IMG/VR virus record: IMGVR_UViG_3300047284_000378
Strand: one strand, 5' to 3'
DNA: 64,000 bases
DNA from: a virus
Below are positions 25,050 through 39,838 of this stretch, one piece after another. The notes under the pieces were generated by a model. The model was given only the letters and a program-made list of their open reading frames with translations, did not search any database and had not been told where the DNA came from. How positions within the stretch are numbered: position 1 is the first letter of the stretch; every line of letters begins with the position of its first letter. The translations under genes and the position numbers were made by a program.

Positions 25050-25055
25050 AGTTAA

Positions 25056-25147
25056 GGAAGCGTGGCAGAGTCTGGTTTATTGCACCGGTCTTGAAAACCG
25101 ACGTCTTAGAAATAGGGCCGTGAGTTCGAATCTCACCGCTTCCACCA
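25056..25147 (+). tRNA. tRNA-Ser(TGA)
   Basis: Cloverleaf with long V-arm. Confidence 0.92.
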
Positions 25148-25162
25148 TATAAGGAGATAGTC

Positions 25163-25357: not shown

Positions 25358-25358
25358 T

Positions 25359-25434
25359 GCCTGTTTAGCTCAATCGGGAGAGCATCGTCTTGATAAGGCG
25401 GAGGTACCAGGATCGAAACCTGGAACAGGCACCA
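25359..25434 (+). tRNA. tRNA-Ile(GAT)
   Basis: Cloverleaf, CCA. Confidence 0.92.
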
Positions 25435-25451
25435 TTATAAGGAGAAATCAA

Positions 25452-25520
25452 AATGGGGCATTGGCAGTTGTTATTTTGGTTATCATAGGTTTAATTTGGA
25501 TTGACAAACATCTAAAGTGA
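25452..25520 (+). CDS. Small hydrophobic peptide (22 aa)
   Basis: RBS AAGGAG; MGALAVVILVIIGLIWIDKHLK. Confidence 0.45.
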   Translation, partial: NGALAVVILVIIGLIWIDKHLK

Positions 25521-25529
25521 AGTTACAAT
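25501..25529 (+). promoter_or_regulatory. sigma70-type promoter
   Basis: TTGACA-17-TACAAT. Confidence 0.75.
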
Positions 25530-25555
25530 ACTAAAACTGAAAAAAGGAGAATGGC

Positions 25556-25613
25556 ATGAAACGTGGTAAACGTTAGTGTCGCCCTGGTACTCCGTATGGT
25601 CCAGGGTTGGCAC
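25556..25613 (+). other. Micro-ORF MKRGKR followed by hairpin
   Basis: AAAGGAG RBS, ATGAAACGTGGTAAACGTTAG, then CCCTGG/CCAGGG stem. Confidence 0.4.
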
Positions 25614-25635
25614 AGTAAATCATCTAGTACGACGA

Positions 25636-25711
25636 CCCTGTGTAGCGTTAATGGTAGCGCACTTGACTCTTAATCAATGAGGTGTGAGTTCAAATCTCAC
25701 TGCAGGGACCA
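25636..25711 (+). tRNA. tRNA-Lys(CTT)
   Basis: Cloverleaf, CCA. Confidence 0.9.
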
Positions 25712-25714
25712 TAT

Positions 25715-25789
25715 GGGAGTATAGCTCAGCGGTAGAGCAGCGGACTTTTAATCCGTTGGTCCAGGGTTCAAATCCCTGTGCTCCTACCA
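25715..25789 (+). tRNA. tRNA-Lys(TTT)
   Basis: Cloverleaf, CCA. Confidence 0.95.
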
Positions 25790-25868
25790 TATAAAAACAC
25801 ACCGGTCTACCGCCACCGAGAGGTAGTTAAAGACAATGACAAGCAACAGCCAGTGTGTTTCTATATGG
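25787..25868 (+). ncRNA. Inverted-repeat-closed small RNA element E1
   Basis: CCATATAAAAACACAC ... GTGTGTTTCTATATGG; internal CTACC/GGTAG hairpin. Confidence 0.55.
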
Positions 25869-26766
25869 TAAAGAATTCAAGGGCAGCTTAATGTCCTGTA
25901 GGCGGTTCGCCGCTTACGAAGAATAACTCCTGTGAGGGAGCCAACAGATGTATGCCTACATAAGTCTGCCAGCGATGGTTCATTTAAGCAAGCCTGCTCA
26001 CTCCGGTGACGGAGCGTTCACTGATAAGACCGGTGGATGTAACAGCAAAGCTGATGTAGTGGAAAGAATGTTTGCTCAAGCGCCGCAAGGTAACGCAAGC
26101 AGATAGAGAGTAACAGGTGGTGCTGACCTCACTACAAAACCAATCAGTTAGTTGGTATGAGAAAGGGTAGTGTTCGGTTCCGAAGAGTCGCGTCTAAGGG
26201 GTCGAGCGCAGTTTGAGTGGTTAGTGGTAACGTAGCAATACGTTGACGCCGATCGCGAAGAACGACTGAGTAGCTCGCGAGGCAAAAGGTACGTGGTGTG
26301 TTGTATTCAGTAGAGCAAAACTTTATTGAGCAACAGAGGCAGCACATCGCAGTAGGTTCAGTTATAGCACAATTGGTAGTGCATCTCCCCTGTTAAGGAG
26401 ACGGCTGAAGGTTCAACTCCTTCTAACGTTCAAAAAAGCAAAGACTGCCTCGGTCATATGTGAAAAGCATCTAATACTTAGGGCGCAAGCCAACTAAGTC
26501 AGACGTAGCTCGCAAGGTGAAATCTGTTTATGCTGGAAGTTTCGTAAGGTGTTAGCGCACCTGAATAGCTCGCAAGGTTAACGGAATAGATAGCGTAGAA
26601 TAGCATATGACGACAAGACTACTGCCTGTCTTTAAAAACGGCGATGCTGATAGTGGACATAGGTACCGCAAGGGCTTATGTGGATGTCTAGAGAAGCTGT
26701 GCTCGCAAGGTGCAGTATAATGCTAGAGGCACTATTAGCTAACGTGTAATCTCAGCGTTAGCACCA
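25867..26766 (+). ncRNA. Large structured RNA, GOLLD-like (~900 nt)
   Basis: ORF-free, many hairpins capped by GCAA/GNRA loops, in a phage tRNA array, embedded tRNA-like domain, 3' GTAATCTCAG hairpin; size and context fit GOLLD. Confidence 0.7.
26361..26427 (+). ncRNA. tRNA-Asn-like domain embedded in large RNA
   Basis: D-arm GCAC/GTGC, TCTCC-CCTGTTAA-GGAGA (8-nt loop), GAAGG-TTCAACT-CCTTC; only a 4-bp acceptor. Confidence 0.65.
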
Positions 26767-26873
26767 TATAAAAACACATTCAAGGCAAAGTACAAGCCTA
26801 GCAGAAGGTGCAGCCACGCCCGGCAACGAGCGTCGGTGGACGGTGCTACTCCGTCGAGTGTGTTTCTATATGG
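26764..26873 (+). ncRNA. Inverted-repeat-closed small RNA element E2
   Basis: Same termini as E1; internal AGGC/GCCT and GACGG/CCGTC hairpins. Confidence 0.55.
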
Positions 26874-26946
26874 TAATGTAGCATAATGGTAGTGCAACAC
26901 CTTCATACGGTGCGCTGTGAAAGTTCGACTCTTTCCATTACCACCA
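26872..26946 (+). tRNA. tRNA(CAT), Met or Ile2
   Basis: Cloverleaf, loop TTCATAC. Confidence 0.85.
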
Positions 26947-26951
26947 TATTT

Positions 26952-27026
26952 GGGGGCAGCAGAGGGCTGCGGTGGATCCTTGCAAGATTCATGACTACAA
27001 GGGTTCGATACCCTGGGCCTCCACCA
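26952..27026 (+). tRNA. tRNA-Ala(TGC), reduced D-loop
   Basis: G3-U70; GCAG-AGGG-CTGC D-arm. Confidence 0.8.
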
Positions 27027-27032
27027 ATTTTC

Positions 27033-27106
27033 GCCCTTTTAGTTTAATGGTAGAGCACCGGTTTTGTAATCCGGGAATGGTGGTTCGATTCCATCAAGGG
27101 GCACCA
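27033..27106 (+). tRNA. tRNA-Thr(TGT)
   Basis: Cloverleaf, CCA. Confidence 0.88.
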
Positions 27107-27109
27107 AGT

Positions 27110-27328
27110 TTTGTTGTAGTGTCAGCAAGAGAAAGTCACGCTATAAAGGTTTCTTCGAAGGACTGATATAGTAGAAGGTGGCGGGTTCGATGCCCGACGG
27201 ATCGGAAGATCCGGGTACATGGTGGCGTACTATCTGGTCCGGTATCCCAAGTAACGTACCGAGTCCTGCCCGGGCTAGTTAATCCAGGTGAATGGTGCCA
27301 ATAACGATGGTGGCACATCTACAACAAA
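27110..27328 (+). ncRNA. Unassigned ~220-nt multibranched RNA
   Basis: Closing stem TTTGTTGTAG/CTACAACAAA; internal T-loop-like CGGG-TTCGATG-CCCG and several hairpins. Confidence 0.6.
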
Positions 27329-27339
27329 TTTATTTCTGA

Positions 27340-27413
27340 TCGGGTGTAGTGTAATGGTAACACCACAGACTTTGACTCTGTTATTCTAGGTTCGAGCCCT
27401 AGCACCCGTGCCA
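27340..27413 (+). tRNA. tRNA-Gln(TTG)
   Basis: Cloverleaf, unpaired 1-72. Confidence 0.92.
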
Positions 27414-27414
27414 T

Positions 27415-27488
27415 GCTCCTATAGTTAAATGGAAGAACACATCCTTGGTAAGGATGCGATACAAGTTCGATTCTTGTTAGGAGCACCA
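27415..27488 (+). tRNA. tRNA-Thr(GGT)
   Basis: Cloverleaf, CCA. Confidence 0.92.
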
Positions 27489-27493
27489 TATAT

Positions 27494-27568
27494 CGGCCTG
27501 TAGCTCAGTGGAAGAGTTCTGGTCTTCGAAACCAGCTGTCGGGAGTTCGAATCTCTCCAGGCCGGCCA
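27494..27568 (+). tRNA. tRNA-Arg(TCG)
   Basis: Cloverleaf, CCA. Confidence 0.92.
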
Positions 27569-27585
27569 TATCCTAGGAGATTGTT

Positions 27586-27792
27586 ATGAAAGCAACAATG
27601 TTTAAAAATCGTTTTAATAATGAGCATTTTGTCTGTGACGATATCCGTGTGACCGAGAATATCGACGGTGTCGAGTATCTTATCGTACATCGACCCAATG
27701 AACATCGTCCGCTTAAAATGCGTCGCGATGCATTAGAGAAGATCAATACCCCAGTAACTCAGCGGAATAAGAGTACTACGCTACGAACGTAG
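27586..27792 (+). CDS. Hypothetical protein; 3' end overlaps tRNA-Arg(ACG)
   Basis: RBS AGGAG; stop lies inside the tRNA. Confidence 0.6.
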   Translation: MKATMFKNRFNNEHFVCDDIRVTENIDGVEYLIVHRPNEHRPLKMRRDALEKINTPVTQRNKSTTLRT

Positions 27793-27825
27793 GAGTCGGA
27801 GGTTCGAGTCCTTCCTGGGGTGCCA
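27748..27825 (+). tRNA. tRNA-Arg(ACG)
   Basis: CTACG-CTACGAA-CGTAG; CCA. Confidence 0.9.
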
Positions 27826-27831
27826 AACAAT

Positions 27832-27905
27832 ATCGCGTTGGACTTCTGGGAGGTCACTAGGCTTTCAACCTAGATAGGCGGGTTCGATCCCCGTACGCGA
27901 TACCA
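27832..27905 (+). tRNA. tRNA-Glu(TTC), second copy with divergent body
   Basis: Cloverleaf, CCA. Confidence 0.88.
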
Positions 27906-27910
27906 ACAAT

Positions 27911-27983
27911 GGTGTTGTTAGTGTAATGGCTGCACGGCTGTCTGTGAAACAGTAAGGGAGGGTTCGATTCCCCACTTCACCCC
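27911..27983 (+). tRNA. tRNA-His(GTG), imperfect acceptor and T stems
   Basis: G-1:C73; anticodon arm intact; 3' side 2 nt short. Confidence 0.7.
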
Positions 27984-27988
27984 ATGTA

Positions 27989-28063
27989 TAGTTCCTTAGT
28001 TCAATGGTAGAACGATACTTTGACATGGTATAGACACAAGTTCAATTCTTGTAGGAACTACCA
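27989..28063 (+). tRNA. tRNA-Val(GAC)
   Basis: Cloverleaf, CCA. Confidence 0.9.
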
Positions 28064-28154
28064 TATGTAAACACATTAGTGAAAGAACGGTCGTAGACCT
28101 TAGGGCTTAGCCTGCGGCATTGTCCTTCGACGGTGGCTAGTGTGTTTGCATATG
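28062..28154 (+). ncRNA. Inverted-repeat-closed small RNA element E3
   Basis: CATATGTAAACACATTAG / CTAGTGTGTTTGCATATG (G-U pairs), related to E1/E2 termini. Confidence 0.55.
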
Positions 28155-28159
28155 TTAAT

Positions 28160-28235
28160 GCCGCTTTAGCTGATGTGGTCATAGCACCGGTTTGAAGCAC
28201 CGAGGAACTAGGTTCGATCCCTAGAGGCGGCACCA
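28160..28235 (+). tRNA. tRNA-Phe(GAA)
   Basis: Cloverleaf, CCA. Confidence 0.9.
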
Positions 28236-28307
28236 GAGTACTCCTTATTGTGTACTGTGCGTTTCATGATAAGGGAAGGGAGAAGGCACAGTTCTCCCGA
28301 GAGATAT

Positions 28308-28384
28308 GCGGATGTGACGGAATTGGTATACGTATTAGACTTAAAATCTAAGTACTGAGGGTTCGAGTCCCTCCATCCGTACCA
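28308..28384 (+). tRNA. tRNA-Leu(TAA), short variable region
   Basis: Leu-type D-arm, CCA. Confidence 0.9.
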
Positions 28385-28385
28385 T

Positions 28386-28462
28386 GCCCAGATGGCGGAA
28401 TTGGTATACGCACTATGTTGAGGTCGTAGGCGCTGCGGGTTCGAGTCCCGCTCTGGGTACCA
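28386..28462 (+). tRNA. tRNA-Leu(GAG), short variable region
   Basis: Leu-type D-arm, CCA. Confidence 0.9.
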
Positions 28463-28469
28463 AAAAATT

Positions 28470-28541
28470 GCCTCTGCTGATGGAGCAGTGCCAGGTCTTC
28501 TAAACCAGGTTATGGGAGTTCGAATCTCTCCAGAGGCGCCA
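28470..28541 (+). tRNA. tRNA-Arg(TCT), reduced D-arm
   Basis: 72 nt; acceptor and T arm canonical. Confidence 0.75.
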
Positions 28542-28549
28542 TATAAAGG

Positions 28550-28578
28550 TTGACAGTAACAAACAAAGGCTATATAAT
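28550..28578 (+). promoter_or_regulatory. sigma70-type promoter
   Basis: TTGACA-17-TATAAT. Confidence 0.85.
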
Positions 28579-28614
28579 ATACACTTGTTCGTTAAAAATT
28601 CAAAGTAGTTAATT

Positions 28615-28695
28615 GCCCCGGTGGTGGAATTGGTAGACACGCTGGTCTTAGAAGCCAGTCTTCGGGTACGAGTTCGAGTCTCGTCTGGGGCACCA
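28615..28695 (+). tRNA. tRNA-Leu(TAG)
   Basis: Leu-type D-arm, mini V-arm with CTTCGG. Confidence 0.92.
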
Positions 28696-28868
28696 TTAAA
28701 AAATAACATTGACAGGTATCGTCTATGGACGCATAGACTTACGAAGAATAGGGCCATCTTACTCTTCTGAAAAAACTGCGGGCAATGGCTTATGAGGAGA
28801 ATCGAACTCCACTCAGAAATTCGCTCCATCCCATAGGGTGCAATGTTATTCTTTAATGGTAAGTTTTT

Positions 28869-28947
28869 CCGGGTGTAGCTTAGTCTGGCTTAAAGCGCCT
28901 GCTTTGGGAGCAGGAGATCGTGAGTTCGAATCCCACTTCCCGGACCA
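28869..28947 (+). tRNA. tRNA-Pro(TGG)
   Basis: Cloverleaf, CCA. Confidence 0.92.
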
Positions 28948-28952
28948 ATTTT

Positions 28953-29028
28953 GCATCCTTAACTCAGTTGGTAGAGTTCCGCCTTTACACGGCGGCTGTC
29001 GGGAGTTCGAGTCTCTCAGGATGCACCA
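28953..29028 (+). tRNA. tRNA-Val(TAC)
   Basis: Canonical cloverleaf. Confidence 0.95.
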
Positions 29029-29036
29029 TATAGTAC

Positions 29037-29130
29037 GGTGAGTTGGATGAGCTGGTTTAAATCACTTTCCTGCTAAGAAAGAGTTCGATGTAAAGTCGGG
29101 CCGTGGGTTCGAATCCCACACTCACCACCA
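29037..29130 (+). tRNA. tRNA-Ser(GCT)
   Basis: Long V-arm, CCA. Confidence 0.9.
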
Positions 29131-29150
29131 ATTTTAAAAAGGAAAAATAA

Positions 29151-29330
29151 ATGCTTAAACCCGGTCCAAACTATAGAATGAGTAAACAAGGTAAAAGATT
29201 TGCTGCTCTCATCATTGATTCTCATCAGCGAGGTGAATTTCTTCGCTCGACTGTTCAGGCAGAATTAGCAGCGGCTATTCAACCCAAGCGTGAAAAACCA
29301 CGCCGTGATGTTCCACAAGGTAATCAGTAA
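29151..29330 (+). CDS. Hypothetical protein (59 aa)
   Basis: RBS AAAGGA; MLKPGPNYRMSK. Confidence 0.6.
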   Translation: MLKPGPNYRMSKQGKRFAALIIDSHQRGEFLRSTVQAELAAAIQPKREKPRRDVPQGNQ

Positions 29331-29332
29331 TC

Positions 29333-29590
29333 ATGGTTGCACGTAATGATATCACGGGCGATGCAATTCAAACCAAAAGTGCATCGGAAGCATATCGAGA
29401 TAATTACGATTTAATTTTTAGGAAAAATAATATGCAGGTAAGAGTAGCAGAAGAAGGTAAAAAGATTGGAACTTGTGGTTGTGGTCGTTCGCCCACCGGC
29501 GATTGTATCGGTTGGCACGGTCTCAGCGAAACTGTCTATCAAGAAAAACTTCAGAAGTATCTTGAAGAACAGAAGGTCGCTGATAAGTAA
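29333..29590 (+). CDS. Small protein with CDGSH-like Fe-S motif
   Basis: CGCGRSPTGDCIGWH. Confidence 0.6.
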   Translation: MVARNDITGDAIQTKSASEAYRDNYDLIFRKNNMQVRVAEEGKKIGTCGCGRSPTGDCIGWHGLSETVYQEKLQKYLEEQKVADK

Positions 29591-29596
29591 AAAGTT

Positions 29597-29672
29597 GGGG
29601 GTATAGCTCAGCTGGGAGAGCAGTAGCTTTGCAAGCTAAAGGTCGTCGGTTCGATCCCGTCTACCTCCACCA
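29597..29672 (+). tRNA. tRNA-Ala(TGC)
   Basis: Canonical, G3-U70. Confidence 0.95.
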
Positions 29673-29677
29673 AATTT

Positions 29678-29751
29678 GCTCTGTTAGTTAAATGGTATAA
29701 CAGTTGCCTTGTAAGCATCAGTCGTTGGTTCGATTCCATCACGGAGCACCA
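29678..29751 (+). tRNA. tRNA-Thr(TGT), second copy
   Basis: Cloverleaf, CCA. Confidence 0.88.
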
Positions 29752-29767
29752 GTATTACCAAAATGTC

Positions 29768-29795
29768 TTGACAAAGACGTTAATGAGTGTATAAT
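29768..29795 (+). promoter_or_regulatory. sigma70-type promoter
   Basis: TTGACA-16-TATAAT. Confidence 0.75.
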
Positions 29796-29801
29796 ATTTT
29801 T

Positions 29802-30056
29802 GTTACGGTAGAAATACTGTAACCGGTGAAGCAGAAGGTAGATGAGGATAGACGTTGTATGGCTTCATGCCGTACAGACTAATTCTGGCAAAGACGCTTG
29901 AAACGTCTCCGTGCTTGGGTGATCCGATTTTATAGACTGTCATTTGCTGATCGGAAATATTCAGGCCACTGTCGCCTGTGTATTGCACGTTGTCTAGACC
30001 GACGACTTCGAACAATAGGTCTTGTCAATTGTCCGGTCTATTACTTGACCTTTTGC
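29802..30056 (+). ncRNA. Unassigned ~255-nt structured RNA upstream of rpoZ
   Basis: 5' GAAA hairpin at predicted TSS; long-range GCAGAAGGT/ACCTTTTGC and ATAGAC/GTCTAT stems enclosing four hairpins. Confidence 0.55.
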
Positions 30057-30085
30057 CGACCCGTCAACAACATCAAGGAAGCTAC

Positions 30086-30331
30086 ATGGCTAGGATTTCA
30101 GCGGAAGAAGCGGCAGCAGCGATAGGTAACAGATTTGACTTGGTGTTAGTAGCCAGTCAACGAGCGAGAGAGATTAAGAATGGGTCTAGGCCTAGGATAG
30201 CTGATCAGAACTCTACACCCTGTGTAGCAGCTCTTAAAGAAATCGAAGAAGGCAAGTATACCTACAACGACTATTTGGTCACAGTACAACGAAAGAAAAA
30301 AGGACACAGAGATGAATATTTCCCTACGTAA
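30086..30331 (+). CDS. rpoZ: RNA polymerase omega subunit
   Basis: MARIS...IGNRFDLVLVASQRAREI...ALKEIEEG. Confidence 0.88.
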   Translation: MARISAEEAAAAIGNRFDLVLVASQRAREIKNGSRPRIADQNSTPCVAALKEIEEGKYTYNDYLVTVQRKKKGHRDEYFPT

Positions 30332-30884
30332 AGCAAACGCAATCCAAAACAACATCAATGACGCTATCCGTAGTGTCAAGATCGAATCTAGCATCGAACT
30401 CAACGAGTTTCAGGATGTGGCTGTAGAGCTGCAAAAGGCCAACGATCTGGTCATCGCCAACGATGCCCGTAGGCAGAAACTGTTGTTGGCTCTGTACAAC
30501 ATCAGAGGCCTAGTCGGCACAGCCAATGCCAGCTGCGGTATCGATCTTAGCTTGGCCAAGGCTGCGTTTATCGACAAGCGTATCGCTCAGCTCGAAGAAT
30601 TGGCATCGTTAAAGGCAGTCACATCATTAGATGTGATCAAAGGTAAACTTGAGAAAATCAAAAGCCTTAAAGACGAAGCTCGTAGCCGTATCTATGGCTA
30701 CGGTGACACCGTGAGCACCACAGTGGTCAGCCAAAGTCAGATCGATCAGGCCAAGGCAGAGATTCTAAATCTCAAGAAGCAGAAGCAAAAGCTCAACGAC
30801 GAAGTGCTTGAGCTTAACATCAAAACTGAGATTCCTCTCAGCGATGAAACAGTAGCTCTTCTACAAGCAGAAGGCCTACTGTAA
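30312..30884 (+). CDS. Coiled-coil hypothetical protein
   Basis: ORF track; helical composition. Confidence 0.7.
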   Translation: MNISLRKANAIQNNINDAIRSVKIESSIELNEFQDVAVELQKANDLVIANDARRQKLLLALYNIRGLVGTANASCGIDLSLAKAAFIDKRIAQLEELASLKAVTSLDVIKGKLEKIKSLKDEARSRIYGYGDTVSTTVVSQSQIDQAKAEILNLKKQKQKLNDEVLELNIKTEIPLSDETVALLQAEGLL

Positions 30885-30889
30885 CAGAC

Positions 30890-31090
30890 CCCGGGGTCCC
30901 TTCCTCGTTATTAAAGGGGGTAATTGGCTTCACCAGAATGCCAGGGTACAAACGGTAACGACCCCAAGGCCCTCTTTAGGGGCGACTTGAGACACCGTGG
31001 CGGCAGAAGTAGAACTGACGACAAAGATGCAAATACTAACGGACAGGGTAACAACTCAGTCTAGGGCGGAACAGGGAACCGTAGCTAGAC
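30890..31090 (+). ncRNA. Unassigned structured RNA
   Basis: GGGGTC/GACCCC, TGGC/GCCA, GCCC/GGGGC, GTCTAG/CTAGAC pairings; no ORF. Confidence 0.45.
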
Positions 31091-31201
31091 ACTTTTAATG
31101 AGTAGATTGACGAGATTTCGACACTCCGGCAAGAGTAACATTATCAAGTCGATTTGCCGATCGAGGGGGCCTATAATTTCCCTTCAGTCTACTCCTTAAA
31201 A
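31091..31201 (+). ncRNA. Long-stem-closed small RNA element E5
   Basis: CTTTTAATGAGTAGATTGA / TCAGTCTACTCCTTAAAAG with internal GCAA hairpin. Confidence 0.5.
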
Positions 31202-31212
31202 GTAAAGTCTAT

Positions 31213-31286
31213 CGCGGGATAGAGAAACGGTAACTCAAGAGTCTCATAAGCTCTAGATCCTGGTTCGATTCCAGGTCCCGCAACCA
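31213..31286 (+). tRNA. tRNA-fMet-like (CAT)
   Basis: C1-A72 mismatch; CAT anticodon. Confidence 0.88.
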
Positions 31287-31290
31287 TTCT

Positions 31291-31365
31291 CTCGCTATAG
31301 TTCAATGGACAGAACGGTTCTCTCCTAAAGAACAAATCCAGGTTCGACTCCTGGTGGCGAGGCCA
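31291..31365 (+). tRNA. tRNA-Arg(CCT)
   Basis: Cloverleaf, CCA. Confidence 0.92.
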
Positions 31366-31382
31366 GAAGTAAATAGTTTTAT

Positions 31383-31456
31383 GCGGGGTTCGTATAGTGG
31401 TAATACCTCAGCCTTCCAAGCTGATGCGGAGAGTTCGATTCTCTTACCCCGCTCCA
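31383..31456 (+). tRNA. tRNA-Gly(TCC)
   Basis: Cloverleaf, CCA. Confidence 0.92.
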
Positions 31457-32371
31457 TTAATCTACAAAATGAAAAACTACTTCGGTAGTTTTTCTTTTGA
31501 CAAAATAATCTAAATCACTATCGGGATTGATAGACCCCACAGGAAATTCCAGAGGAGCGATCAGCTTATTATCTGTCACAGATTCTAGCCAATTTTGAAA
31601 TTCACAACTTTTATAAATTGCAGTTCGCTGGTCATCCAATTTTAAATCTAAATTTCCAAAAGTATAATCTATTCCTGATATCGCAGGAGAATTAGTAGAT
31701 TCGTCATCGAGGAAACTTTGATAAAATGTTTTTCCTAGTATTTCATTAGAAAATACTACATCATAAAATGTATCATTTTTTAGAGTACTATGATACAGGT
31801 CTTGTTCTTCTTGAGTGATTTCAAACCATAAGTCCAACCCGTGATCGTTTTGATCTATGTGTGTTTGTAAACGCTTATGTCCGTACTGTTCGGCACTGAG
31901 ATAATTTTTGGTAAAATCTGAATACAGTTCTAATTTATGAACCAATGAATTTATTATCTTCGATGATTCGGAAATAGAATTTTCCCAAGATGACGATTTA
32001 ATCCAATGGTCGGGGTAATGAGTTTGCAGGTAAAAATTTATACCGACGAATATGTTATGAACATCATTACACCAGCGTTGATCTCGATTGAATGTATCAT
32101 GTAAAGTGGGAAACTCAAATTGAGTTATATTTTTTTGTTTTAAAAGTTTTTTAAAATTTGAAATTTCATTTAATAACTGTGAATATATTTCTATATGCCT
32201 ATCGTCTCGAAGAACAATCGGTGCATGACCATATAAATTAAGTATTCCTTTAATAGGACATATTTTTTGAAGTTTTACACAATTATCAAACCAACGACGC
32301 AGTACCGAATTATCGAGCACATCAATTACTATCTGTGCATTTGAATCATTTGATTTTAGAATTATTTTCAT
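31457..32371 (-). CDS. Hypothetical protein (AT-rich)
   Basis: 304-aa ORF; TAAATA upstream on minus strand. Confidence 0.7.
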   Translation of the reverse strand: MKIILKSNDSNAQIVIDVLDNSVLRRWFDNCVKLQKICPIKGILNLYGHAPIVLRDDRHIEIYSQLLNEISNFKKLLKQKNITQFEFPTLHDTFNRDQRWCNDVHNIFVGINFYLQTHYPDHWIKSSSWENSISESSKIINSLVHKLELYSDFTKNYLSAEQYGHKRLQTHIDQNDHGLDLWFEITQEEQDLYHSTLKNDTFYDVVFSNEILGKTFYQSFLDDESTNSPAISGIDYTFGNLDLKLDDQRTAIYKSCEFQNWLESVTDNKLIAPLEFPVGSINPDSDLDYFVKRKTTEVVFHFVD

Positions 32372-32401
32372 AGTGTTATTTAATCACTAAATATTTCACC
32401 T

Positions 32402-32980
32402 ATGTACAATATAATAGACCACAACGAAACTTTTCAAAAATTTGATTTTAGTTCCACGATCAGTCAAAAAGATAATAACGAAGCCATAGGCATTATAAAA
32501 AATATTATCGCTGATGGGAATTACTTCACGAATAGCCCTAAGTTCCAAACTAAAGAAAATATTTTTTCTAGATCTGAAGCTATATGGTTAAAATACAGAA
32601 TGAGTTTCTTGTTCTCGGTGTTTATGTACTTAGGTCGTGAAGTAAAGGTCAGTAACATGATGGCCTGGTCATTCATGACTAATCTTGAGGGTGCCGAGGA
32701 TCGAGAAAAACTATGGCATCATCATTGGCATCCAACTCGCCCCGAAGCTAAAATGCTCAGCGGTATTTGGTATCTACATATACCAGAAGACGTGAAAGAT
32801 CGTGACTATTGCGGAACAGAAATGGCTCCAAATGGCATCAAAGAGGATGGCAAATTTTTTGTCAAACCCACCGATTACAATTGGTTGATATATCCCAGTG
32901 ATCGGTGGCATAGACCCGGTATCGTACAGAGCAACGATTACAGATTTATTTTAGCCGCGGACATCGAATATCTTCCTTGA
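32402..32980 (+). CDS. Putative 2OG-Fe(II) oxygenase-like protein
   Basis: WHHHWH, LSGIWYL, IYPSDRWHRP pattern of a double-stranded beta-helix fold. Confidence 0.6.
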   Translation: MYNIIDHNETFQKFDFSSTISQKDNNEAIGIIKNIIADGNYFTNSPKFQTKENIFSRSEAIWLKYRMSFLFSVFMYLGREVKVSNMMAWSFMTNLEGAEDREKLWHHHWHPTRPEAKMLSGIWYLHIPEDVKDRDYCGTEMAPNGIKEDGKFFVKPTDYNWLIYPSDRWHRPGIVQSNDYRFILAADIEYLP

Positions 32981-32987
32981 TTCAAAA

Positions 32988-33077
32988 GGAGGATGCAGCA
33001 AGATGGTTCTTGCACCTGTTTGGAAAACAGGCGGCTGGCGTTGGCTGGCCGGGGTTCGATTCCTCCTTCCTCCGCCA
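32988..33077 (+). tRNA. tRNA-Ser(GGA), 8/4 allo-tRNA-like fold
   Basis: 8-bp acceptor, 6-bp D-stem with 4-nt loop, 7-bp V-arm, 4-bp T-stem, G73. Confidence 0.8.
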
Positions 33078-33078
33078 C

Positions 33079-33107
33079 TTGACAATCGCAAGAAAAGACT
33101 ATATAAT
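33079..33107 (+). promoter_or_regulatory. sigma70-type promoter
   Basis: TTGACA-17-TATAAT. Confidence 0.85.
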
Positions 33108-33113
33108 AGTGTT

Positions 33114-33338
33114 ATGTATAAAGTAAATTGGAAAGACACAGCGGGTAGAGGCTGTGTGGAAGAAGTAAAAGATCTATCGGAAGCTCTGGCTTTCGCAAAA
33201 GAATTAGGTATACTGGTCACGATAAACGGTGACGGTATGGAATTAGTCGGCGTCTTTGGTGCAGATGAAATCAAGGACGGTAAATTACCCAACGGAGAAG
33301 CTTACAGCTGGTATAAAAGAAGATATGTCAAAAAATGA
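33114..33338 (+). CDS. Hypothetical phage protein
   Basis: ORF after promoter. Confidence 0.6.
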   Translation: MYKVNWKDTAGRGCVEEVKDLSEALAFAKELGILVTINGDGMELVGVFGADEIKDGKLPNGEAYSWYKRRYVKK

Positions 33339-33543
33339 TTTAATTGAATTAACAGGTAAGATCGAAGAAGTCTTGCCTGGCAGTATGTATAGAGTAAAAA
33401 TAGACAACATGCCTAACGTCATAACTTGTTATACGGGAGGCAAGCTCAAACAACACAAGATTAAAATCATTCTTGGCGATCGAGTAAAAGTTGAAGTCAG
33501 TGCCTACGATTTAACCAAAGGTCGTGTAACATATCGTTTATAA
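33325..33543 (+). CDS. infA: Translation initiation factor IF-1
   Basis: IELTGKIEEVLP...GKLKQHKIKIILGDRVKVEVSAYDLTKGRVTYR. Confidence 0.93.
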   Translation: MSKNDLIELTGKIEEVLPGSMYRVKIDNMPNVITCYTGGKLKQHKIKIILGDRVKVEVSAYDLTKGRVTYRL

Positions 33544-33552
33544 GGAGTTAAT

Positions 33553-34230
33553 ATGAAACGAGTGATTGAAATCCGTGCCGCAGAGGGCGGAGAAGATAGC
33601 AAATTGTTTGTCAGCGATCTCGCTCAAGCATACGCCAAACTAGGAACCAAACTGGGTTGAACTACCCGCCTGATAGATGTACGTCCTGGCGAGTGTTCAT
33701 TACTTGTTGAGGGCGTAGATTTATCCGGCTTAGACAATGAGCCCGGTGGTCACAGAATACAACGAATTCCTCCTACAGAGCGCAAGGGCCGAGTTCACAC
33801 CAGCACCGTTACCGTCGCTGTCATAGACGGCGAGGATGTCTGGACAACACCAACTATACATAAAAACGATCTCAAGATTGAATGGTATAGTGGTACTGGT
33901 GCTGGTGGACAACATCGAAACAAACATCAAAATAGCTGTCGCATAACACATCTGCCTACAGGTATCATGGCCAAAGCAGAATGTCGTAGTCGACAATCTA
34001 GCCTAGATTCGGCTGTGGCAGAAATACAACAGCGTGTTGACGCAGCAGCCAAAAGATCATATAATAATAGTATAGCGAGCAATAGAAAGAATCAAGTAGG
34101 ATCGGGTATGCGTGGAGACAAAATCCGCACATATAGATTCCAAGATGATACTGTACAAGATCACCTAACAGGTCAAAGAGCCAAGTGTTCTGCTGTGCTT
34201 AAAGGCAATATAGATTTACTTTGGAGATAA
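33553..34230 (+). CDS. Class I peptide chain release factor, RF1-like (lacks domain 1), with in-frame TGA at 33658-33660
   Basis: RBS AAGGAG; IEIRAAEGG, GGHRIQRIPPTE (PxT), GAGGQH, KIRTY; single frame across the TGA. Confidence 0.85.
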
Positions 34231-34232
34231 CC

Positions 34233-34742
34233 ATGCCATGGATTCAGAATGTAGCCTATGCAGATATACCTAAGCGCCATCATGTTGCTGTAGGTGAGAA
34301 TTCCATGTTGATCCAGATCGTCGATCCGGCCATGGAGTTTCCTAACCCCGCACACGAGTTCAAAGAAGTTCATCAGTTTGAGTTTCTTGATCTTGAACGC
34401 GATGACAAGTGGGGTGAGGAGTTTAAGATCACCGACGATCAGGCCGCAGAACTTGTTCGTCTATTGCGACATGCTCTAGATAAACATATGGACGTTATCG
34501 TTCATTGTGTCGCTGGTGTATGTCGTAGTGGTGCAGTATGTGAAGTAGGCGTTATGATGGGCTTTCGTGATACAGAAGCATATCGTAGCCCTAACTTAAT
34601 GGTCAAGCACAAGATGATGAAAGTCTTGGGTTGGACCTACGATGAAAACGAACCGCACACTATCAACGGTGTGCCCTTTGAATACGACGATCTAGGCAAC
34701 AAAAAGATTTGGGTGCCGCCACAACGTGAAGGAGATATCTAA
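34233..34742 (+). CDS. Protein-tyrosine/dual-specificity phosphatase-like protein
   Basis: VHCVAGVCRSG (HCxxGxxRS). Confidence 0.8.
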   Translation: MPWIQNVAYADIPKRHHVAVGENSMLIQIVDPAMEFPNPAHEFKEVHQFEFLDLERDDKWGEEFKITDDQAAELVRLLRHALDKHMDVIVHCVAGVCRSGAVCEVGVMMGFRDTEAYRSPNLMVKHKMMKVLGWTYDENEPHTINGVPFEYDDLGNKKIWVPPQREGDI

Positions 34743-35041
34743 TGGGTGATGAATACGAAGTCCCTAGCCATACAGTAGAAGCACTAGACAGATATTGGAC
34801 ACACGGTTACTCGCCAGGAAGTTTTCTCAGCAGTCTGCTCTGCGGTGATATCTATGGCGCTATCGGTAGAGCAGATCATTGGAACAAGGCTTCTCTAGGT
34901 CAGATTGTAGAATATATCGTACATAAGGCACCACGAGGCAGTTACGGTACACCGGATCTGTATCAAGATTGGATTAATCGGGGTGTGGCTTTTCAGCAAC
35001 ACGAAAAGAACCGTGTAGTTGACATTTTGAGCACACCATAG
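34742..35041 (+). CDS. Hypothetical phage protein
   Basis: Y...G--PGSFL-SLL--D...RAD. Confidence 0.65.
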   Translation: MGDEYEVPSHTVEALDRYWTHGYSPGSFLSSLLCGDIYGAIGRADHWNKASLGQIVEYIVHKAPRGSYGTPDLYQDWINRGVAFQQHEKNRVVDILSTP

Positions 35042-35047
35042 TATAAT
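35019..35047 (+). promoter_or_regulatory. sigma70-type promoter
   Basis: TTGACA-17-TATAAT. Confidence 0.8.
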
Positions 35048-35053
35048 ACAATT

Positions 35054-35458
35054 ATGGAATACGCCGTACAATCTCGAAGCAAGCGAACCCGGCAGTTCAT
35101 AGAGGGAGTACTGCCCTCTATGATAAAACAGTTGGGTTTAACACGTAGTAAAAAACTATTGTTTGTCAAAGTTGTTAGAGAACAACTCGACGATAATGAT
35201 GGATTGACCAGTAATTTAGCACAGTTCGGAGCTATCGTGATTTTACTCAAACCACAGAGCTTTGAAAAACTAGGGGTCACACTTGCGCATGAGATGGTCC
35301 ATGTAAAGCAAATGGCTAAAGGTACGTTGAAAACCGTTAAGGGTATAAATTATTGGAATGGTCGTAGATACAGTAAACGCACAAAGTATCTCGATCAACC
35401 GTGGGAAATTGAAGCATTTAGTAAACAAGAGCTCATCTTTAGGAGAGCTATAGAATAG
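35054..35458 (+). CDS. Zn metallopeptidase-like protein (HExxH)
   Basis: TLAHEMVHVKQ...QPWEIEA. Confidence 0.75.
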   Translation: MEYAVQSRSKRTRQFIEGVLPSMIKQLGLTRSKKLLFVKVVREQLDDNDGLTSNLAQFGAIVILLKPQSFEKLGVTLAHEMVHVKQMAKGTLKTVKGINYWNGRRYSKRTKYLDQPWEIEAFSKQELIFRRAIE

Positions 35459-35471
35459 AAAGGAGGGTAAA

Positions 35472-36077
35472 ATGCCTAGCGTATTTTTAGTTAGCGATAC
35501 GCATTTCGGACACGCTGGCGTTTGCCGCTTCACCCGAAATGACGGAGTTACGAAGTTGCGTCCCTGGGACGATCCTGCGGAGATGGACGAAGCTATGGTC
35601 AAGGCTTGGAACGAAAGAGTCAAGCCCACAGACAAAGTCTACCACTTAGGCGACGTTGTTATTAACCGTAAGGCATTAGGTACCTTAGCCCGTTTGAACG
35701 GCGACAAGGTCTTAATCCGCGGTAACCACGACATCTTCCGTGATGACGAGTACAGGCAGTACTTCAGAGAGTTACGTGCATACCATGTTATGAACGGCAT
35801 GATCTTAAGCCATATTCCTGTACACAGCGATAGCTTAGGTCGGTTTGGTGTTAACATCCATGGACACTTACACGCAAACCGTGTTCGTAAGGCTCGTGGC
35901 GTTGATGCTAGGACCGGTGAAGTGTTATACAGTGACGAGATCGATCCACGTTACCACTGTGTTTGCGTAGAACAAACTCCAGACTTTGCCCCTATCTTAT
36001 TCGAAGACGCTATCAAACGTATCGAAGCAGAAGGCGGTGAAGTAGGTTTTAGGAACGGCAACGGTCCTACTATGTGA
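35472..36077 (+). CDS. Calcineurin-like phosphoesterase
   Basis: SDTHFGH, HLGD, GNHD, HIP, HGHLH. Confidence 0.88.
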   Translation: MPSVFLVSDTHFGHAGVCRFTRNDGVTKLRPWDDPAEMDEAMVKAWNERVKPTDKVYHLGDVVINRKALGTLARLNGDKVLIRGNHDIFRDDEYRQYFRELRAYHVMNGMILSHIPVHSDSLGRFGVNIHGHLHANRVRKARGVDARTGEVLYSDEIDPRYHCVCVEQTPDFAPILFEDAIKRIEAEGGEVGFRNGNGPTM

Positions 36078-36094
36078 CATTAACTACGCACTTT

Positions 36095-36122
36095 ATAGGG
36101 CTCTTCGGAGCCCTATTTTTTT
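36095..36122 (+). terminator. Intrinsic terminator
   Basis: ATAGGGCTC-TTCG-GAGCCCTAT-T run. Confidence 0.9.
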
Positions 36123-36147
36123 GGCTATAGGTTCTGGAACGTGTGAC

Positions 36148-36154
36148 ATAAATA
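36148..36154 (+). promoter_or_regulatory. T4-late-like promoter motif ATAAATA
   Basis: Upstream of structural gene. Confidence 0.6.
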
Positions 36155-36184
36155 TATGAGCTTGGTAAAGTTTCGGAGTCAAAT

Positions 36185-37915
36185 ATGCCCTTACAAATTA
36201 AAAGAGGCCCAACAGCAGATAGAAGCACTTATACACCCGTACAAGGTGAATTGGTATTCGATACTGATGAGAATAAATTATACGTAGGTGATGGTGCTAC
36301 CGTCGGCGGTGTCGCCACTACCTCAATAAGTTTAGAAGATGCTGAACAAGAAGCAGCGTCTCTATTCACTACTGGTATACATACAGGTATTTCTTTTACA
36401 TACAATAATTTGGCTGGTAGGATCGATGCACAGGTCGCAGAATTTTTAGAATCAGATATTAAAGGATCAGTCTTTGCTGATAACAGTACACTACTTGTAG
36501 ATGGTGTATCAGCAACATTTAACCTAGACGGAACAGTCAAAGGTAACATCATACCTAACGCAGATTCTGCCTATGATCTAGGGAGTGCCAGTTTTAAGTT
36601 TAGAGATCTTTATCTAAGCGGAACTAGTATTCACTTAGGATCTGCTGTGATAACTTCAACAGGAACGGCTGTTGATTTACCAGCAGGATCAACAGTAAAC
36701 GGAAATATCATCGGTGCATCCGGAAGCGGAGTCGTAGAAGGTAGCACCTATAAGATCAATATCGCTGCCGATGACAGCAGTATCATGCTAGATACTGACC
36801 TAGAAACTGTCACTGCTTCTGGTGGTTTTTTTGGTAACCTAACAGGTTATCACACTGGAGATACCAAAGGTTCTGTATTCGCAGACGATTCATCTATCTT
36901 AGTAGATGCAGTCAGCGGAGTTATATTAGGCGATGTAGCCAGCCAAGAAATCAAACTAGGAACAGCCACAGCTTACAATTCACGATTCCATAGTACAATA
37001 CCAGGCGAGATAACCACAGATGTTACCGGCAGTATCGTTTATAGAGTAAATGCTCAGACCGTAGCTTTGGGATCAGAATCATACTCTTCTCGTCTAAATG
37101 TCTACGGTGATGGAGCTGTAGGTACCGTAGGTAATTTTTATACCGCGATCTCGGGCGGCGGAGCTCTTAGCAAGAGACTTGTGTTCTATAGAGCCAACGG
37201 TAGTAATGCTGCACCTACAGCCATAGCAGACTCAGAAAGAATCATAGACATAGATTTCAACGGATACGATGGTACTGACTATGTTACTAGTGCCACTATT
37301 CGTGCTATTGTCGACGGATCAGTAACTACTGGCAGAGTTCCGGGTAGTTTAATTTTCTTAACAGCAGATAGTACCGGTACCCTTCAAACAGGAATCAGAA
37401 TTGATTCGACCAACGGAGTAACCTTACAGGGTAATTTAACCGCAGATTCTGGTAGTGTTTTATTTTACGGATATAGTAATGCTCAGACTGCCAAATCATT
37501 AAACCTATATCGAGCCAGAGGTAGTAGAACATCTTTCTCAGTGGCCCAGGCCAATGATCACATTTACTCTTTAAAATGGAATGCCTATGACGGTTCTGCC
37601 TATCAGCAGGTTACACAAATCAGAGGTGAAATAGATGGTTCGTTGTTAGGCGGCGGAATCATTCCAGGTAAGCTAAGAATGATGACTGTTGATTCAACAG
37701 GAGTCATGGCGACTGCTATCGTTATCGATAGTTTACAGAATGTTCAAATTCCTAAGAGACTAACCATACAGAGCGGCGGAGTTTTGACCTTATCTGTATA
37801 TGCAGATTCTACTGCTAGAGGAACTGCAATTCCAGCTCCTACTGCAGGGATGGTTTGTATAACCGGAACTTCATTTACTTTCTATGACGGTTCTGCCTGG
37901 CAAACACTAACCTAA
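36185..37915 (+). CDS. Tail fibre / virion structural protein
   Basis: N-terminal LQIKRG...GELVFDTD--KLYVGDG (Mtd_N-like); internal GSVFADDS and RAxGS...YDG repeats. Confidence 0.75.
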   Translation: MPLQIKRGPTADRSTYTPVQGELVFDTDENKLYVGDGATVGGVATTSISLEDAEQEAASLFTTGIHTGISFTYNNLAGRIDAQVAEFLESDIKGSVFADNSTLLVDGVSATFNLDGTVKGNIIPNADSAYDLGSASFKFRDLYLSGTSIHLGSAVITSTGTAVDLPAGSTVNGNIIGASGSGVVEGSTYKINIAADDSSIMLDTDLETVTASGGFFGNLTGYHTGDTKGSVFADDSSILVDAVSGVILGDVASQEIKLGTATAYNSRFHSTIPGEITTDVTGSIVYRVNAQTVALGSESYSSRLNVYGDGAVGTVGNFYTAISGGGALSKRLVFYRANGSNAAPTAIADSERIIDIDFNGYDGTDYVTSATIRAIVDGSVTTGRVPGSLIFLTADSTGTLQTGIRIDSTNGVTLQGNLTADSGSVLFYGYSNAQTAKSLNLYRARGSRTSFSVAQANDHIYSLKWNAYDGSAYQQVTQIRGEIDGSLLGGGIIPGKLRMMTVDSTGVMATAIVIDSLQNVQIPKRLTIQSGGVLTLSVYADSTARGTAIPAPTAGMVCITGTSFTFYDGSAWQTLT

Positions 37916-37917
37916 TA

Positions 37918-39189
37918 TTATCTGATCCACTCAGCATGGAGTCTTTCGGTAACACCGACTGACTCCTTTTTAAAATTAATTTGTTTGAACCCGAATTCAG
38001 AGGAAAATTCTTGAAGCTTTTCCATGGTCCAGGGATAGAAATCAATAGCCTTGCAACCTTCGTGCTGATGATCTTTATATCCGGGATTAACTCTCCAATA
38101 GATTCGACCAGTATCTTTTAAACAAGATACGACTTTTTTTATTTGATTTCTGATATCGTCGTCAGATCCAAAGTTTATGCTACCGAAGCAGATAGCTACA
38201 TCAAACAGCCTATCCGGTTCATAGTTTTCTATGGTAGTAATAACATCTGCTTGATCGAAGGCTGGATCTATACCTATGACATTTTTACATAGATTTTTAA
38301 AGGGATTATACCCGCAGCCTACATCCAGTACCCACTCGTCGTCTCCGATCTGTGTTGCCAACTCTCTGTGAGTATAGTCAGGACACTCTCCGTAAATAGG
38401 AGACCATTTGTTAGCAAAATAATCATTCAACAGTCCCTGATCTAATGCTCTTTCTTTCTTTTGTAAGATAAAAAAGAATCTGTTGTTGCTGTCTTTTTTG
38501 AATGAAATCAAATTAAGATTATATTTCTTAGACAGTTCGTATACAGTTTCAAAATCCCAAGGAAAAATATCTACATAGGGTCCATTGGGCCACGAAATTC
38601 CGGGATTGGCTCTAAAATATATCTTGCCCATAGGCATTAGAAGTTCTACTAGTTTTCTAAATCTCAATTCTATCTCATCTCTTGAATTGAAATTCAAACT
38701 TCCAAATGCTATGATATGATCGAAACTTTCATTTTCGACTTTAAAATCTAATACATCGACCATATAGTCAGCACAATTATTGTAGGGATCAATACCAATA
38801 AGATTACTAACTCGTCCTTTGAACTGATTAAAACCGCAACCAAAATCTAAAACTGATTTAGGATTTTGTTTATTGATTTCTTCTACTATAGACCAACCTG
38901 TGTACTGATATTTTTCAGTATTAGGTTTCCATATTTCTCCGAAAAATCTCATAAGGTATCGCTGATCTAAATTTTTACATACCTGTTCTAGGGTTCCCGA
39001 TAAATCAATGTTAGATAATATTAATTGTTCTTTAATATGATTTTCAAATTTCTGTAATCTAGCAGGAGTCCACGGCAACTCTAACAATACAGTTGAAGTA
39101 TTGATTTTTTCTACTACTTCTTTGTACTTGGGTAAGCTAAAGGCTAGGTTTAGCTCGTCATAGAGTAATTTGTAAATTTTTTGATTCAT
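37918..39189 (-). CDS. Tandem double class I SAM-dependent methyltransferase
   Basis: Two domains, VLDFGCG...IGIDP and VLDVGCG...IGIDP, each followed by GS-NF and RxNPG. Confidence 0.8.
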   Translation of the reverse strand: MNQKIYKLLYDELNLAFSLPKYKEVVEKINTSTVLLELPWTPARLQKFENHIKEQLILSNIDLSGTLEQVCKNLDQRYLMRFFGEIWKPNTEKYQYTGWSIVEEINKQNPKSVLDFGCGFNQFKGRVSNLIGIDPYNNCADYMVDVLDFKVENESFDHIIAFGSLNFNSRDEIELRFRKLVELLMPMGKIYFRANPGISWPNGPYVDIFPWDFETVYELSKKYNLNLISFKKDSNNRFFFILQKKERALDQGLLNDYFANKWSPIYGECPDYTHRELATQIGDDEWVLDVGCGYNPFKNLCKNVIGIDPAFDQADVITTIENYEPDRLFDVAICFGSINFGSDDDIRNQIKKVVSCLKDTGRIYWRVNPGYKDHQHEGCKAIDFYPWTMEKLQEFSSEFGFKQINFKKESVGVTERLHAEWIR

Positions 39190-39301
39190 TTGACATCCTT
39201 GCTGGAATTATATACGTATTTATTTGCTATTTGTTTGTGCAATAAATTATTGATATTAGAAGATAAATACAACTGTTATCTTAATAAATTTGGAGAAAAA
39301 A

Positions 39302-39838
39302 ATGCCGAAACTATTTTTTGTCGTAGGGCCTATAGGTACCCATAGAGGAATCACGGTCGGTCTTATAGAACTATGCAAATCTCTAAATAAAACATTTTTT
39401 GAAGTAACTTTGGGTGCTAACAAAAATATAGCCAAGTACGGGTCTAGCCAACCAGATGTAGTAGTTACTAGGGTAGCTGAACACATGGCGGCCCCTACCG
39501 AAGATGTTATTATTTTTAATGGATTTAAAATAGCCGAACATATCGGATCAATATATCCGGTATATAAAGATAAGGCAACCTTTATATTTTCAAGAGAAAG
39601 ATTTCCTGGAAGTACTTCTGAAAGTTTAAGATTTCATAGAAAATACGCACCCGACGACGTAGTAGATAATGTTGTAAACAGTCAGAAAACGGCTATTGCC
39701 AAACTAGTTTCAGATCATAATCTAGACTTATCCTACAGATCAGTGAATTGGGATCAATCTATGTTCGAAGGCTCGGTCTTAAATAGCGAAGAAGGTGTTA
39801 CTGAAATTGCGGTTCTTGGATCGCTGAATTTAAGTTAA
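39302..39838 (+). CDS. P-loop/sulfotransferase-fold-like protein
   Basis: LFFVVGPIG N-terminal strand-loop; resembles 44152 and 60892 ORFs; ATAAATA upstream. Confidence 0.45.
   Translation: MPKLFFVVGPIGTHRGITVGLIELCKSLNKTFFEVTLGANKNIAKYGSSQPDVVVTRVAEHMAAPTEDVIIFNGFKIAEHIGSIYPVYKDKATFIFSRERFPGSTSESLRFHRKYAPDDVVDNVVNSQKTAIAKLVSDHNLDLSYRSVNWDQSMFEGSVLNSEEGVTEIAVLGSLNLS

Follow-up and report, generated by a model that had tools for sequence, protein, structure and literature searches.

How a giant phage obtains a complete release factor (RF) from a gene that is interrupted by a stop codon is the question raised by the locus described here. The window, that is the whole stretch of 64,000 nucleotides that was analysed (IMG/VR record IMGVR_UViG_3300047284_000378), contains a short RF gene of 225 codons on its plus strand (33553-34230), running from an ATG at 33553 to a TAA at 34228-34230. 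The sole in-frame stop of this frame is the TGA at codon 36 (33658-33660, context GGT TGA ACT). A preliminary description of the locus had reported this single frame with one TGA, which was confirmed, and had proposed that the stop is a site of programmed UGA read-through at a conserved Trp position. The features of the locus are listed below.

33256-33543, plus strand: IF-1 (infA) homologue, directly upstream of the RF gene (Pfam eIF-1a, 2.5e-17)
33542-33547, plus strand: Shine-Dalgarno sequence AAGGAG, which shares bases with the TAA that ends the IF-1 gene upstream (read from the sequence)
33553-33657, plus strand: short RF codons 1-35, strand beta1 and helix alpha1 of RF domain 2
33658-33660, plus strand: in-frame TGA, codon 36, where the RF1 'GW' motif has its Trp
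33661-33667, plus strand: spacer ACTACCC of 7 nt between the UGA and the hairpin, synonymous positions almost fixed
33661-34230, plus strand: short RF codons 37-225 and TAA, holding the PPT and GGQ motifs
33668-33729, plus strand: conserved hairpin, 5' arm 33668-33686 and 3' arm 33711-33729
33769-33777, plus strand: PPT motif, RF1-type
33904-33912, plus strand: GGQ motif, codons 118-120
34233-34742, plus strand: DSP/PTP-like phosphatase (weak Pfam DSPc match, 27.3 bits, below the cut-off of 33.5 bits)
35472-36077, plus strand: metallophosphoesterase (Pfam Metallophos)
24695-24768, plus strand: tRNA-Trp(CCA), D stem GUGU/GCAU giving U11-A24, a candidate UGA decoder

The translated frame displayed the two domains and the GGQ motif of bacterial RF1 (prfA). 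Pfam PCRF (PF03462, profile positions 103-194 of 194) matched residues 4-88, across the stop (8.5e-21), and RF-1 (PF00472) matched residues 101-204 (2.7e-18). The top NCBIfam model was prfA, at 192 bits against a cut-off of 400 bits for the full-length equivalog. Since this match spans only model positions 107-334 of 347, domain 1 is absent; likewise, the match to RF1 from the PDB (HMMER) spans only RF1 residues 112-340. In the PDB search the short RF scored 137 bits with RF1, 84 bits with RF2 and 35 bits with PrfH, and codon 36 was aligned to the W of 'KGW' in T. maritima RF1. The recognition motif IQRIPPTERKGRVHTS was aligned to VQRVPxTE..GRIHTS of RF1, with the Q, the PPT (a PxT motif) and the HTS kept. 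The Glu of the GGxE element of RF1 and RF2 is replaced by Asp in the short RF family. The factor is an RF1-type class I release factor with a predicted specificity for UAA and UAG. The stop at the Trp position, the RF1-type PPT motif and the missing domain 1, all stated in the preliminary description, were thus borne out.

The AF2 model (pLDDT 92.7) showed a strand at residues 2-9, a helix at 14-34 and a strand at 37-44, and it superimposed on ribosome-bound RF1 with TM 0.88-0.92, RF1 being the top structural match. Based on this layout and superposition, domain 2 includes codons 1-35 as an integral part. After the TGA the RF homology stays in the 0 frame, and frames +1 and -1 are shut within 5 and 17 codons, respectively; frameshifting at codon 36 was therefore rejected.

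In order to see how the stop has fared in related phages, relatives were collected by a scan of IMG/VR that gave 289 matches. The best 80 of the 289 loci were kept (65-90% identity, from about 64 IMG datasets as counted from the table). One of them, L027, is a fragment starting at codon 35 and was set apart. In the other 79 full-length loci and the window, codon 36 is TGA in 80 out of 80 sequences, and TGG, TAA or TAG were never found. The AAGGAG upstream of the ATG was also present in the 12 relatives inspected. Among 70 distinct coding sequences, dN/dS was 0.108 for codons 2-35 and 0.109 for codons 37-224, at a dS of about 1.7-2.0, which means that synonymous sites are saturated. The stop is thus retained by selection between two coding flanks, as is expected for read-through. 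The preliminary description had named conservation in homologues and purifying selection on both flanks as the checks to be made, and a TGA unique to this assembly as the outcome that would speak against it; both checks turned out in its favour, and the TGA is shared by relatives of different datasets. Together these results strongly support programmed UGA read-through at the Trp position, as far as can be judged from sequence comparison.

A scan of IMG/VR for the exact 3' context found it preceded by TGA in 62 stretches. When preceded by TGG, the same context gave two matches, neither of them inside an RF gene, and no TGG version of the gene was found there. A near-identity DNA search of the INPHARED phages gave no match. 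Database proteins that appear to be full-length, with W at this position, can be translated only with TGA taken as W. In its second database form the gene is a shortened call of 182-189 aa with a downstream start, and the starts picked by gene callers vary among relatives. As the RF gene is recorded either as this shorter ORF or as a TGA=W call, code-4 calls on short contigs are misleading.

The hairpin 3' of the UGA was evaluated with RNAalifold and by explicit pair counts. Its 17 pairs were 92% paired, in comparison with 25-46% when the partner was slid. Seven pairs vary on both sides, for example UACG/CGUA to AGUA/UACU, and one double-sided change is the synonymous GGC to GGT. The observed covariation score was matched by none of 500 shuffles; the covariation lies mostly between two subclades, and the element sits within coding sequence. 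Synonymous diversity, calculated from same-amino-acid pairs in 9-codon windows, had a gene mean of 0.79, a minimum of 0.21 at codons 37-45 and a second dip at codons 55-58. A purely protein-level cause is disfavoured by the slid controls and by this synonymous-site profile. The gene thus has a conserved 3' context and a conserved RNA structure of the kind expected for read-through. In the window the pairing runs on into the loop, with an MFE of -40.7 kcal/mol (z = -5.25). Analogous hairpins of other sequence were found 7-12 nt past the UGA in L117, L118, L053, L078, L065 and L035. Because the close relatives all keep the stop and the hairpin, the stop is regarded as a built-in expression gate and not as damage.

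The spacer ACTACCC lies outside the hairpin yet is almost fixed, and it may act on decoding via the 3' context of the stop. Two further helices were discarded. A small helix CGCC/GGCG (33667-33670 with 33688-33691) is conserved but without covariation, and its pairs would cross those of the main hairpin. A hairpin enclosing the TGA, formed by CTGAACTAC and GTAGTTTAG, needs an AGT Ser codon where the window has TCA, and it is therefore not conserved. An Rfam search of the region gave neither a SECIS nor a recoding family.

The preferred reading, with a probability of roughly 0.6, is programmed read-through of the UGA as Trp at codon 36, with the output set by competition between RF2 and Trp-tRNA. 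Ribosomes would initiate at the strong Shine-Dalgarno sequence, translate 35 codons and reach the UGA, when the long hairpin 7 nt downstream would be at the mRNA entrance. Most of them would be terminated by host RF2, freeing a 35-residue peptide. A minority would take near-cognate Trp-tRNA(CCA), regain the ancestral Trp and finish the 225-residue factor, an RF1-type protein without domain 1 that would read UAA and UAG. The hairpin would stimulate the read-through. Host RF2 is most likely the factor that reads the gating UGA, because the recognition residues of the phage factor (Q, PPT, HTS) are RF1-type. RF2 dependence is consistent with these residues and also with the prfB-like cassette of a distant family member, L105 (see below). 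The output of the RF gene would then gauge RF2 or the overall termination capacity of the infected cell, rising when either is short. Since TAA is the main stop of the window (56 of 87 ORFs of at least 80 aa), the additional UAA/UAG-reading activity could relieve RF2 and close an indirect negative-feedback loop. Insertion of Trp at the UGA is the best supported form of decoding because the codon occupies the Trp position, some homologues carry TGG there, only UGA is used, and from codon 18 to codon 139 the window's RF gene offers no in-frame ATG, GTG or TTG from which the C-terminal part could be started.

The comparison was widened by a profile-free search among 1.84 billion representatives, which gave diverse domain-1-less RFs, 35-49% identical to that of the window, many of them truncated calls starting between residues 38 and 86. 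TGA was found at the Trp site in L115, L117, L118, L119 and L120 (44-56% identity, with very different GC content). On the other hand, the short RFs L109 and L110 have TGG at this site, and these ungated members were counted against the read-through reading. L113 (551-1222) has TGG at the Trp site and a fresh TGA four codons on; this TGA lies inside the 5' arm of a perfect 8-bp hairpin, GUUGAUUG...CAAUCAAC. Two huge phages, in which the code is possibly non-standard, have independent TGAs elsewhere: L104 at codons 46 and 54, L106 at codon 52. L105 (LR745208.1, a 485-kb uncultured phage, about 1488-2200) has the +1 cassette AGG GGT CTT TGA C at the equivalent of codons 36-37, and its +1 frame carries on with RF homology and GGQ. 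All in-frame stops seen across the family are UGA. The maximum-likelihood tree groups 19 rows, mostly with TGA at the Trp site, in a clade to which L110 (TGG) is basal (fork support 88/74); L109 and L113 are nested within this clade. This suggests that the gate is old and was occasionally lost or moved.

These family data bear on whether the gate responds to anything. The stop could be a fixed attenuator, in which a constant, low-efficiency read-through limits the dose of a potentially harmful factor and RF2 is not sensed. A strong AAGGAG followed by an early stop fits such dose limitation, and the present data, consisting of sequences, contain no RF2 response. However, a weak ribosome-binding site would do equally well, the stops of the family arose repeatedly and as UGA only, and one member, L105, has a prfB-type cassette, the bacterial role of which is RF2 sensing (PMC5009743). 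The last two observations argue for a responsive gate, and fixed attenuation is considered unlikely. For the family as a whole it is tentatively proposed, at somewhat less than even odds, that UGA-recoding gates have arisen repeatedly, each time independently, in short phage RF1-type factors, as hairpin-stimulated read-through at several positions and in one lineage as a prfB-like +1 shift, and that they would form a cross-factor homeostat in which an RF1-type factor is made when RF2 capacity is short.

Alternatively, the phage factor might have a broadened specificity, read the UGA itself and terminate its own synthesis, as RF2 does at prfB codon 26. Stop-gated RF genes are classically autoregulatory (prfB; the Mimivirus RF, PMC3521657), and the specificity is not certain given the Asp in place of Glu in GGxE. 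In addition, the recognition loop of L105 is shortened (QRTSNGRIHSS) and has neither a PxT nor an SPF motif. Against this, the residues for RF1 specificity are conserved in the short RF (the Q before PxT, the P and T of PPT, and HTS), and by both PDB score and top structural match it is far nearer to RF1 than to RF2. Direct autoregulation thus seems rather improbable.

A further possibility is a dedicated decoder: an undetected opal-suppressor tRNA of phage or host, a modified tRNA-Trp, or the phage tRNA-Trp acting in the manner of the Hirsh suppressor, so that the gate would be a timing switch set by tRNA expression. In phages, code-change modules that include suppressor tRNAs have been described (10.1101/2021.08.26.457843). 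The preliminary description had taken the code to be standard, and this held: TGA terminates 20 of the 87 ORFs of the window. Under code 11, ORFs of 120 aa or more take up 83% of a complete relative, G002 (364,247 bp with direct terminal repeats), and the same-frame junctions between its ORFs (TAA 30, TGA 12, TAG 8) track overall stop usage. The standard code holds for both the window and G002. Apart from the RF gene, no gene with an in-frame TGA was found. The one other candidate (61340-62035 / 62066-62698) was rejected, as it consists of a complete phage Fe/Mn superoxide dismutase gene (61340-62035, plus strand) followed by a separate HNH endonuclease gene.

No UCA tRNA was detected in the 64-kb window or in G002 by ARAGORN and a custom anticodon-loop scan, nor by Rfam on window positions 23000-35000. 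The five relatives that are at least 90% complete have no TrpRS and no RF2, and each of them contains exactly one gene with an RF domain. Consequently, none of the marks of a code-4 module (many genes with in-frame TGA, tRNA-Sup(UCA), TrpRS) was found.

The window and all five of these relatives have a tRNA-Trp(CCA) gene, which is uninformative because these phages have about 45 tRNAs per genome. The preliminary description had linked the gate to a Hirsh-type tRNA-Trp. The wild-type tRNA-Trp of E. coli has U11·G24. In the window tRNA-Trp, the CCA anticodon together with A24 does correspond to the Hirsh type; the U11-A24 pair, as it had been described, is evident from the D stem and was found in 5 of the 6 phage tRNA-Trp genes examined. 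G002, however, has U11·G24 in its tRNA-Trp and its RF gene keeps the TGA, so that gate and pair do not go together. The proposed link is therefore not supported, nor is it needed. A 4-bp anticodon stem has been tied to UGA reading (PMC13092985); it occurs in only one of the six tRNA-Trp genes (G007) and is not a general trait. With no UCA tRNA found in the window or G002 and no TrpRS in the five relatives, with the gate kept in G002 and with no second gene to be decoded, a dedicated decoder is improbable.

An amber-suppressor tRNA(CUA) is conserved in these phages. It is found in four of the five near-complete relatives, at 363408-363482 of G002 (L103:3408-3482) and also in L121, L122 and L123, away from the main tRNA array and with compensatory changes from one genome to another. 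In-frame TAG junctions were not in excess. The occurrence of this tRNA beside an RF1-type factor was counted against the read-through reading.

Several other RNA genes were observed. The relatives carry a tmRNA, which in G002 is permuted (361980-362523). G002 also has, on the minus strand at 227532-227606, an ARAGORN tRNA with an 8-nt anticodon loop (tttc), which is either frameshift-suppressor-like or a miscall. In the window, GOLLD RNA (RF02032, 216 bits) lies at 26293-26758 on the plus strand within the tRNA array and includes a tRNA-like segment at 26361-26427. A tRNA-like gene at 24866-24962 (plus strand; Rfam tRNA, 57.6 bits) was not called by ARAGORN; it has a 25-nt insertion in the D-loop and the anticodon loop CAGAUAA (A33, anticodon GAU). 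At 32987-33074 (plus strand) ARAGORN called a tRNA-Ser(GGA) for which the best Rfam model is tRNA-Sec (48.5 bits). Its 6-bp D stem is closed by a UGGU tetraloop, its variable arm is long and its acceptor stem is extended, so that it resembles an allo-tRNA or a Sec-like fold with a Ser anticodon.

The remaining alternatives do not agree well with the data. If translation stopped at the UGA and re-initiated, the 35-residue peptide and a C-terminal fragment could assemble into a split protein, and gene callers do place downstream starts in some relatives. These starts are inconsistent between relatives, though, and the window has no start codon where one would be required (codons 18-139); moreover, any stop would do for this purpose, yet it is TGA alone that is used, and at the Trp codon. 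A split protein is thus very improbable. Selenocysteine insertion is hardly credible: a UGA with a hairpin a few nucleotides on recalls the geometry of a bacterial SECIS, and the tRNA with the Sec-like fold lies 480 nt upstream, but that tRNA has the anticodon GGA and not UCA, the homologues show Trp/TGG and no Cys at this position, and the hairpin has no Rfam SECIS match and no small apical loop of the SelB type. An assembly error or a recent pseudogene, for which nothing speaks beyond the presence of the stop codon, is excluded by the TGA common to relatives of about 64 datasets and by the purifying selection on both flanks.

The gene neighbourhood may offer a hint to the function of the factor. 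The DSP-like phosphatase is linked to the RF gene on the same strand in 74 of the 80 loci and the metallophosphoesterase in 54 of the 80, and the IF-1 gene adjoins it in 15 of the 80, all close relatives. The RF gene of L109 is near a gene that joins kinase, phosphoesterase and RNA-ligase domains. The short RF might be part of a ribosome-rescue or RNA-repair module. The neighbourhood is reminiscent of PrfH-RtcB2, yet this identity was rejected on the basis of the RF1-nearer sequence and of the score with the NCBIfam PrfH model TIGR03072 (41.9 bits against a cut-off of 166.65). No Pfam RNA-ligase match, as would be expected of an RtcB2 neighbour, was obtained among the ten flanking ORFs tested (31457-39838). 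Elsewhere in the window, the tRNA region includes a gene of the RNA polymerase omega/Rpb6-like type (29978-30331, plus strand), and a protein with an N-terminal Mtd_N (major tropism determinant) domain is encoded at 36185-37915 (plus strand).

Phage-encoded RFs have been reported (PMC7162821; 10.1101/2021.08.26.457843), and an RF gene gated by recoding is known for plant eRF1 (PMC5397192). In a 2016 review of recoding, same-frame read-through of an early stop was considered for RF2, and neither an RF2 case nor an RF1 counterpart was known (PMC5009743). Full-text literature searches did not find a phage UGA-gated short RF described. If the read-through reading is true, the locus would provide the bacterial-type RF regulated by read-through that the recoding field considered early and never found. 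It would further give a natural example of bacterial ribosomes reading through a stop with the help of an RNA structure; the hairpin is a compact, natural and phylogenetically supported candidate for such a stimulator. More generally, phages may actively tune termination capacity.

The closest parallel is prfB, the gene for RF2. In both cases a class I RF gene is broken early by UGA, at codon 26 in prfB and at codon 36 here, and completion hinges, or in the present case would hinge, on poor termination by RF2 at that UGA. The resemblance extends to L105, which has the CUU UGA C cassette after a Shine-Dalgarno-like element. However, the window gene stays in the 0 frame and would be read through, whereas prfB uses a +1 frameshift; within the family a prfB-type cassette is seen in the distant L105 only. 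The putative stimulator is a 3' hairpin here and an upstream Shine-Dalgarno-like element in prfB. Since it is an RF1-type factor that is gated, the control, exerted in cis through read-through, would be cross-regulatory, running from one factor to another, whereas prfB regulates itself.

The class I RF of Mimivirus and Megavirus (PMC3521657) is also a viral release factor synthesised via stop-codon recoding. It is an eRF1-type protein of a virus of eukaryotes and requires one read-through and one frameshift, while the window factor is a bacterial RF1-type protein without domain 1, encoded by a phage, and would need a single UGA read-through. In the Jade phages with code 4 (10.1101/2021.08.26.457843), a phage RF1-type factor is likewise tied to UGA = Trp. 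There the module is itself written in the standard code and comprises tRNA-Sup(UCA) and TrpRS, and many late genes have in-frame TGA. In contrast, here the RF gene alone has the TGA. The present locus is therefore not a code-change module of the Jade type, given its standard code and the absence of a UCA tRNA from the window and G002 and of TrpRS from the relatives examined.

PrfH (RF-H), which is paired with RtcB2, shares with the short RF the absence of domain 1, and the short RF gene is linked to phosphoesterase genes, with a Pnkp-like and RNA-ligase gene near that of L109. The two differ in that the short RF is far nearer to RF1 than to PrfH (137 against 35 bits) and retains the PxT motif.

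Leaky UGA is read through in the A1 protein of phage Qbeta, and structure-stimulated read-through is used by retroviruses and alphaviruses. Structure-stimulated read-through is not known to have a precedent in bacteria. As in these viruses, a near-cognate tRNA would decode a leaky stop in the phage RF gene, and the RNA structure a few nucleotides downstream is a feature in common with the alphavirus and other viral cases (PMC3159437). In Qbeta, retroviruses and alphaviruses, however, the protein already works without read-through, which lengthens it at the C-terminus. In the phage RF gene an essential domain is interrupted by the stop, and read-through would therefore switch the whole protein on or off.
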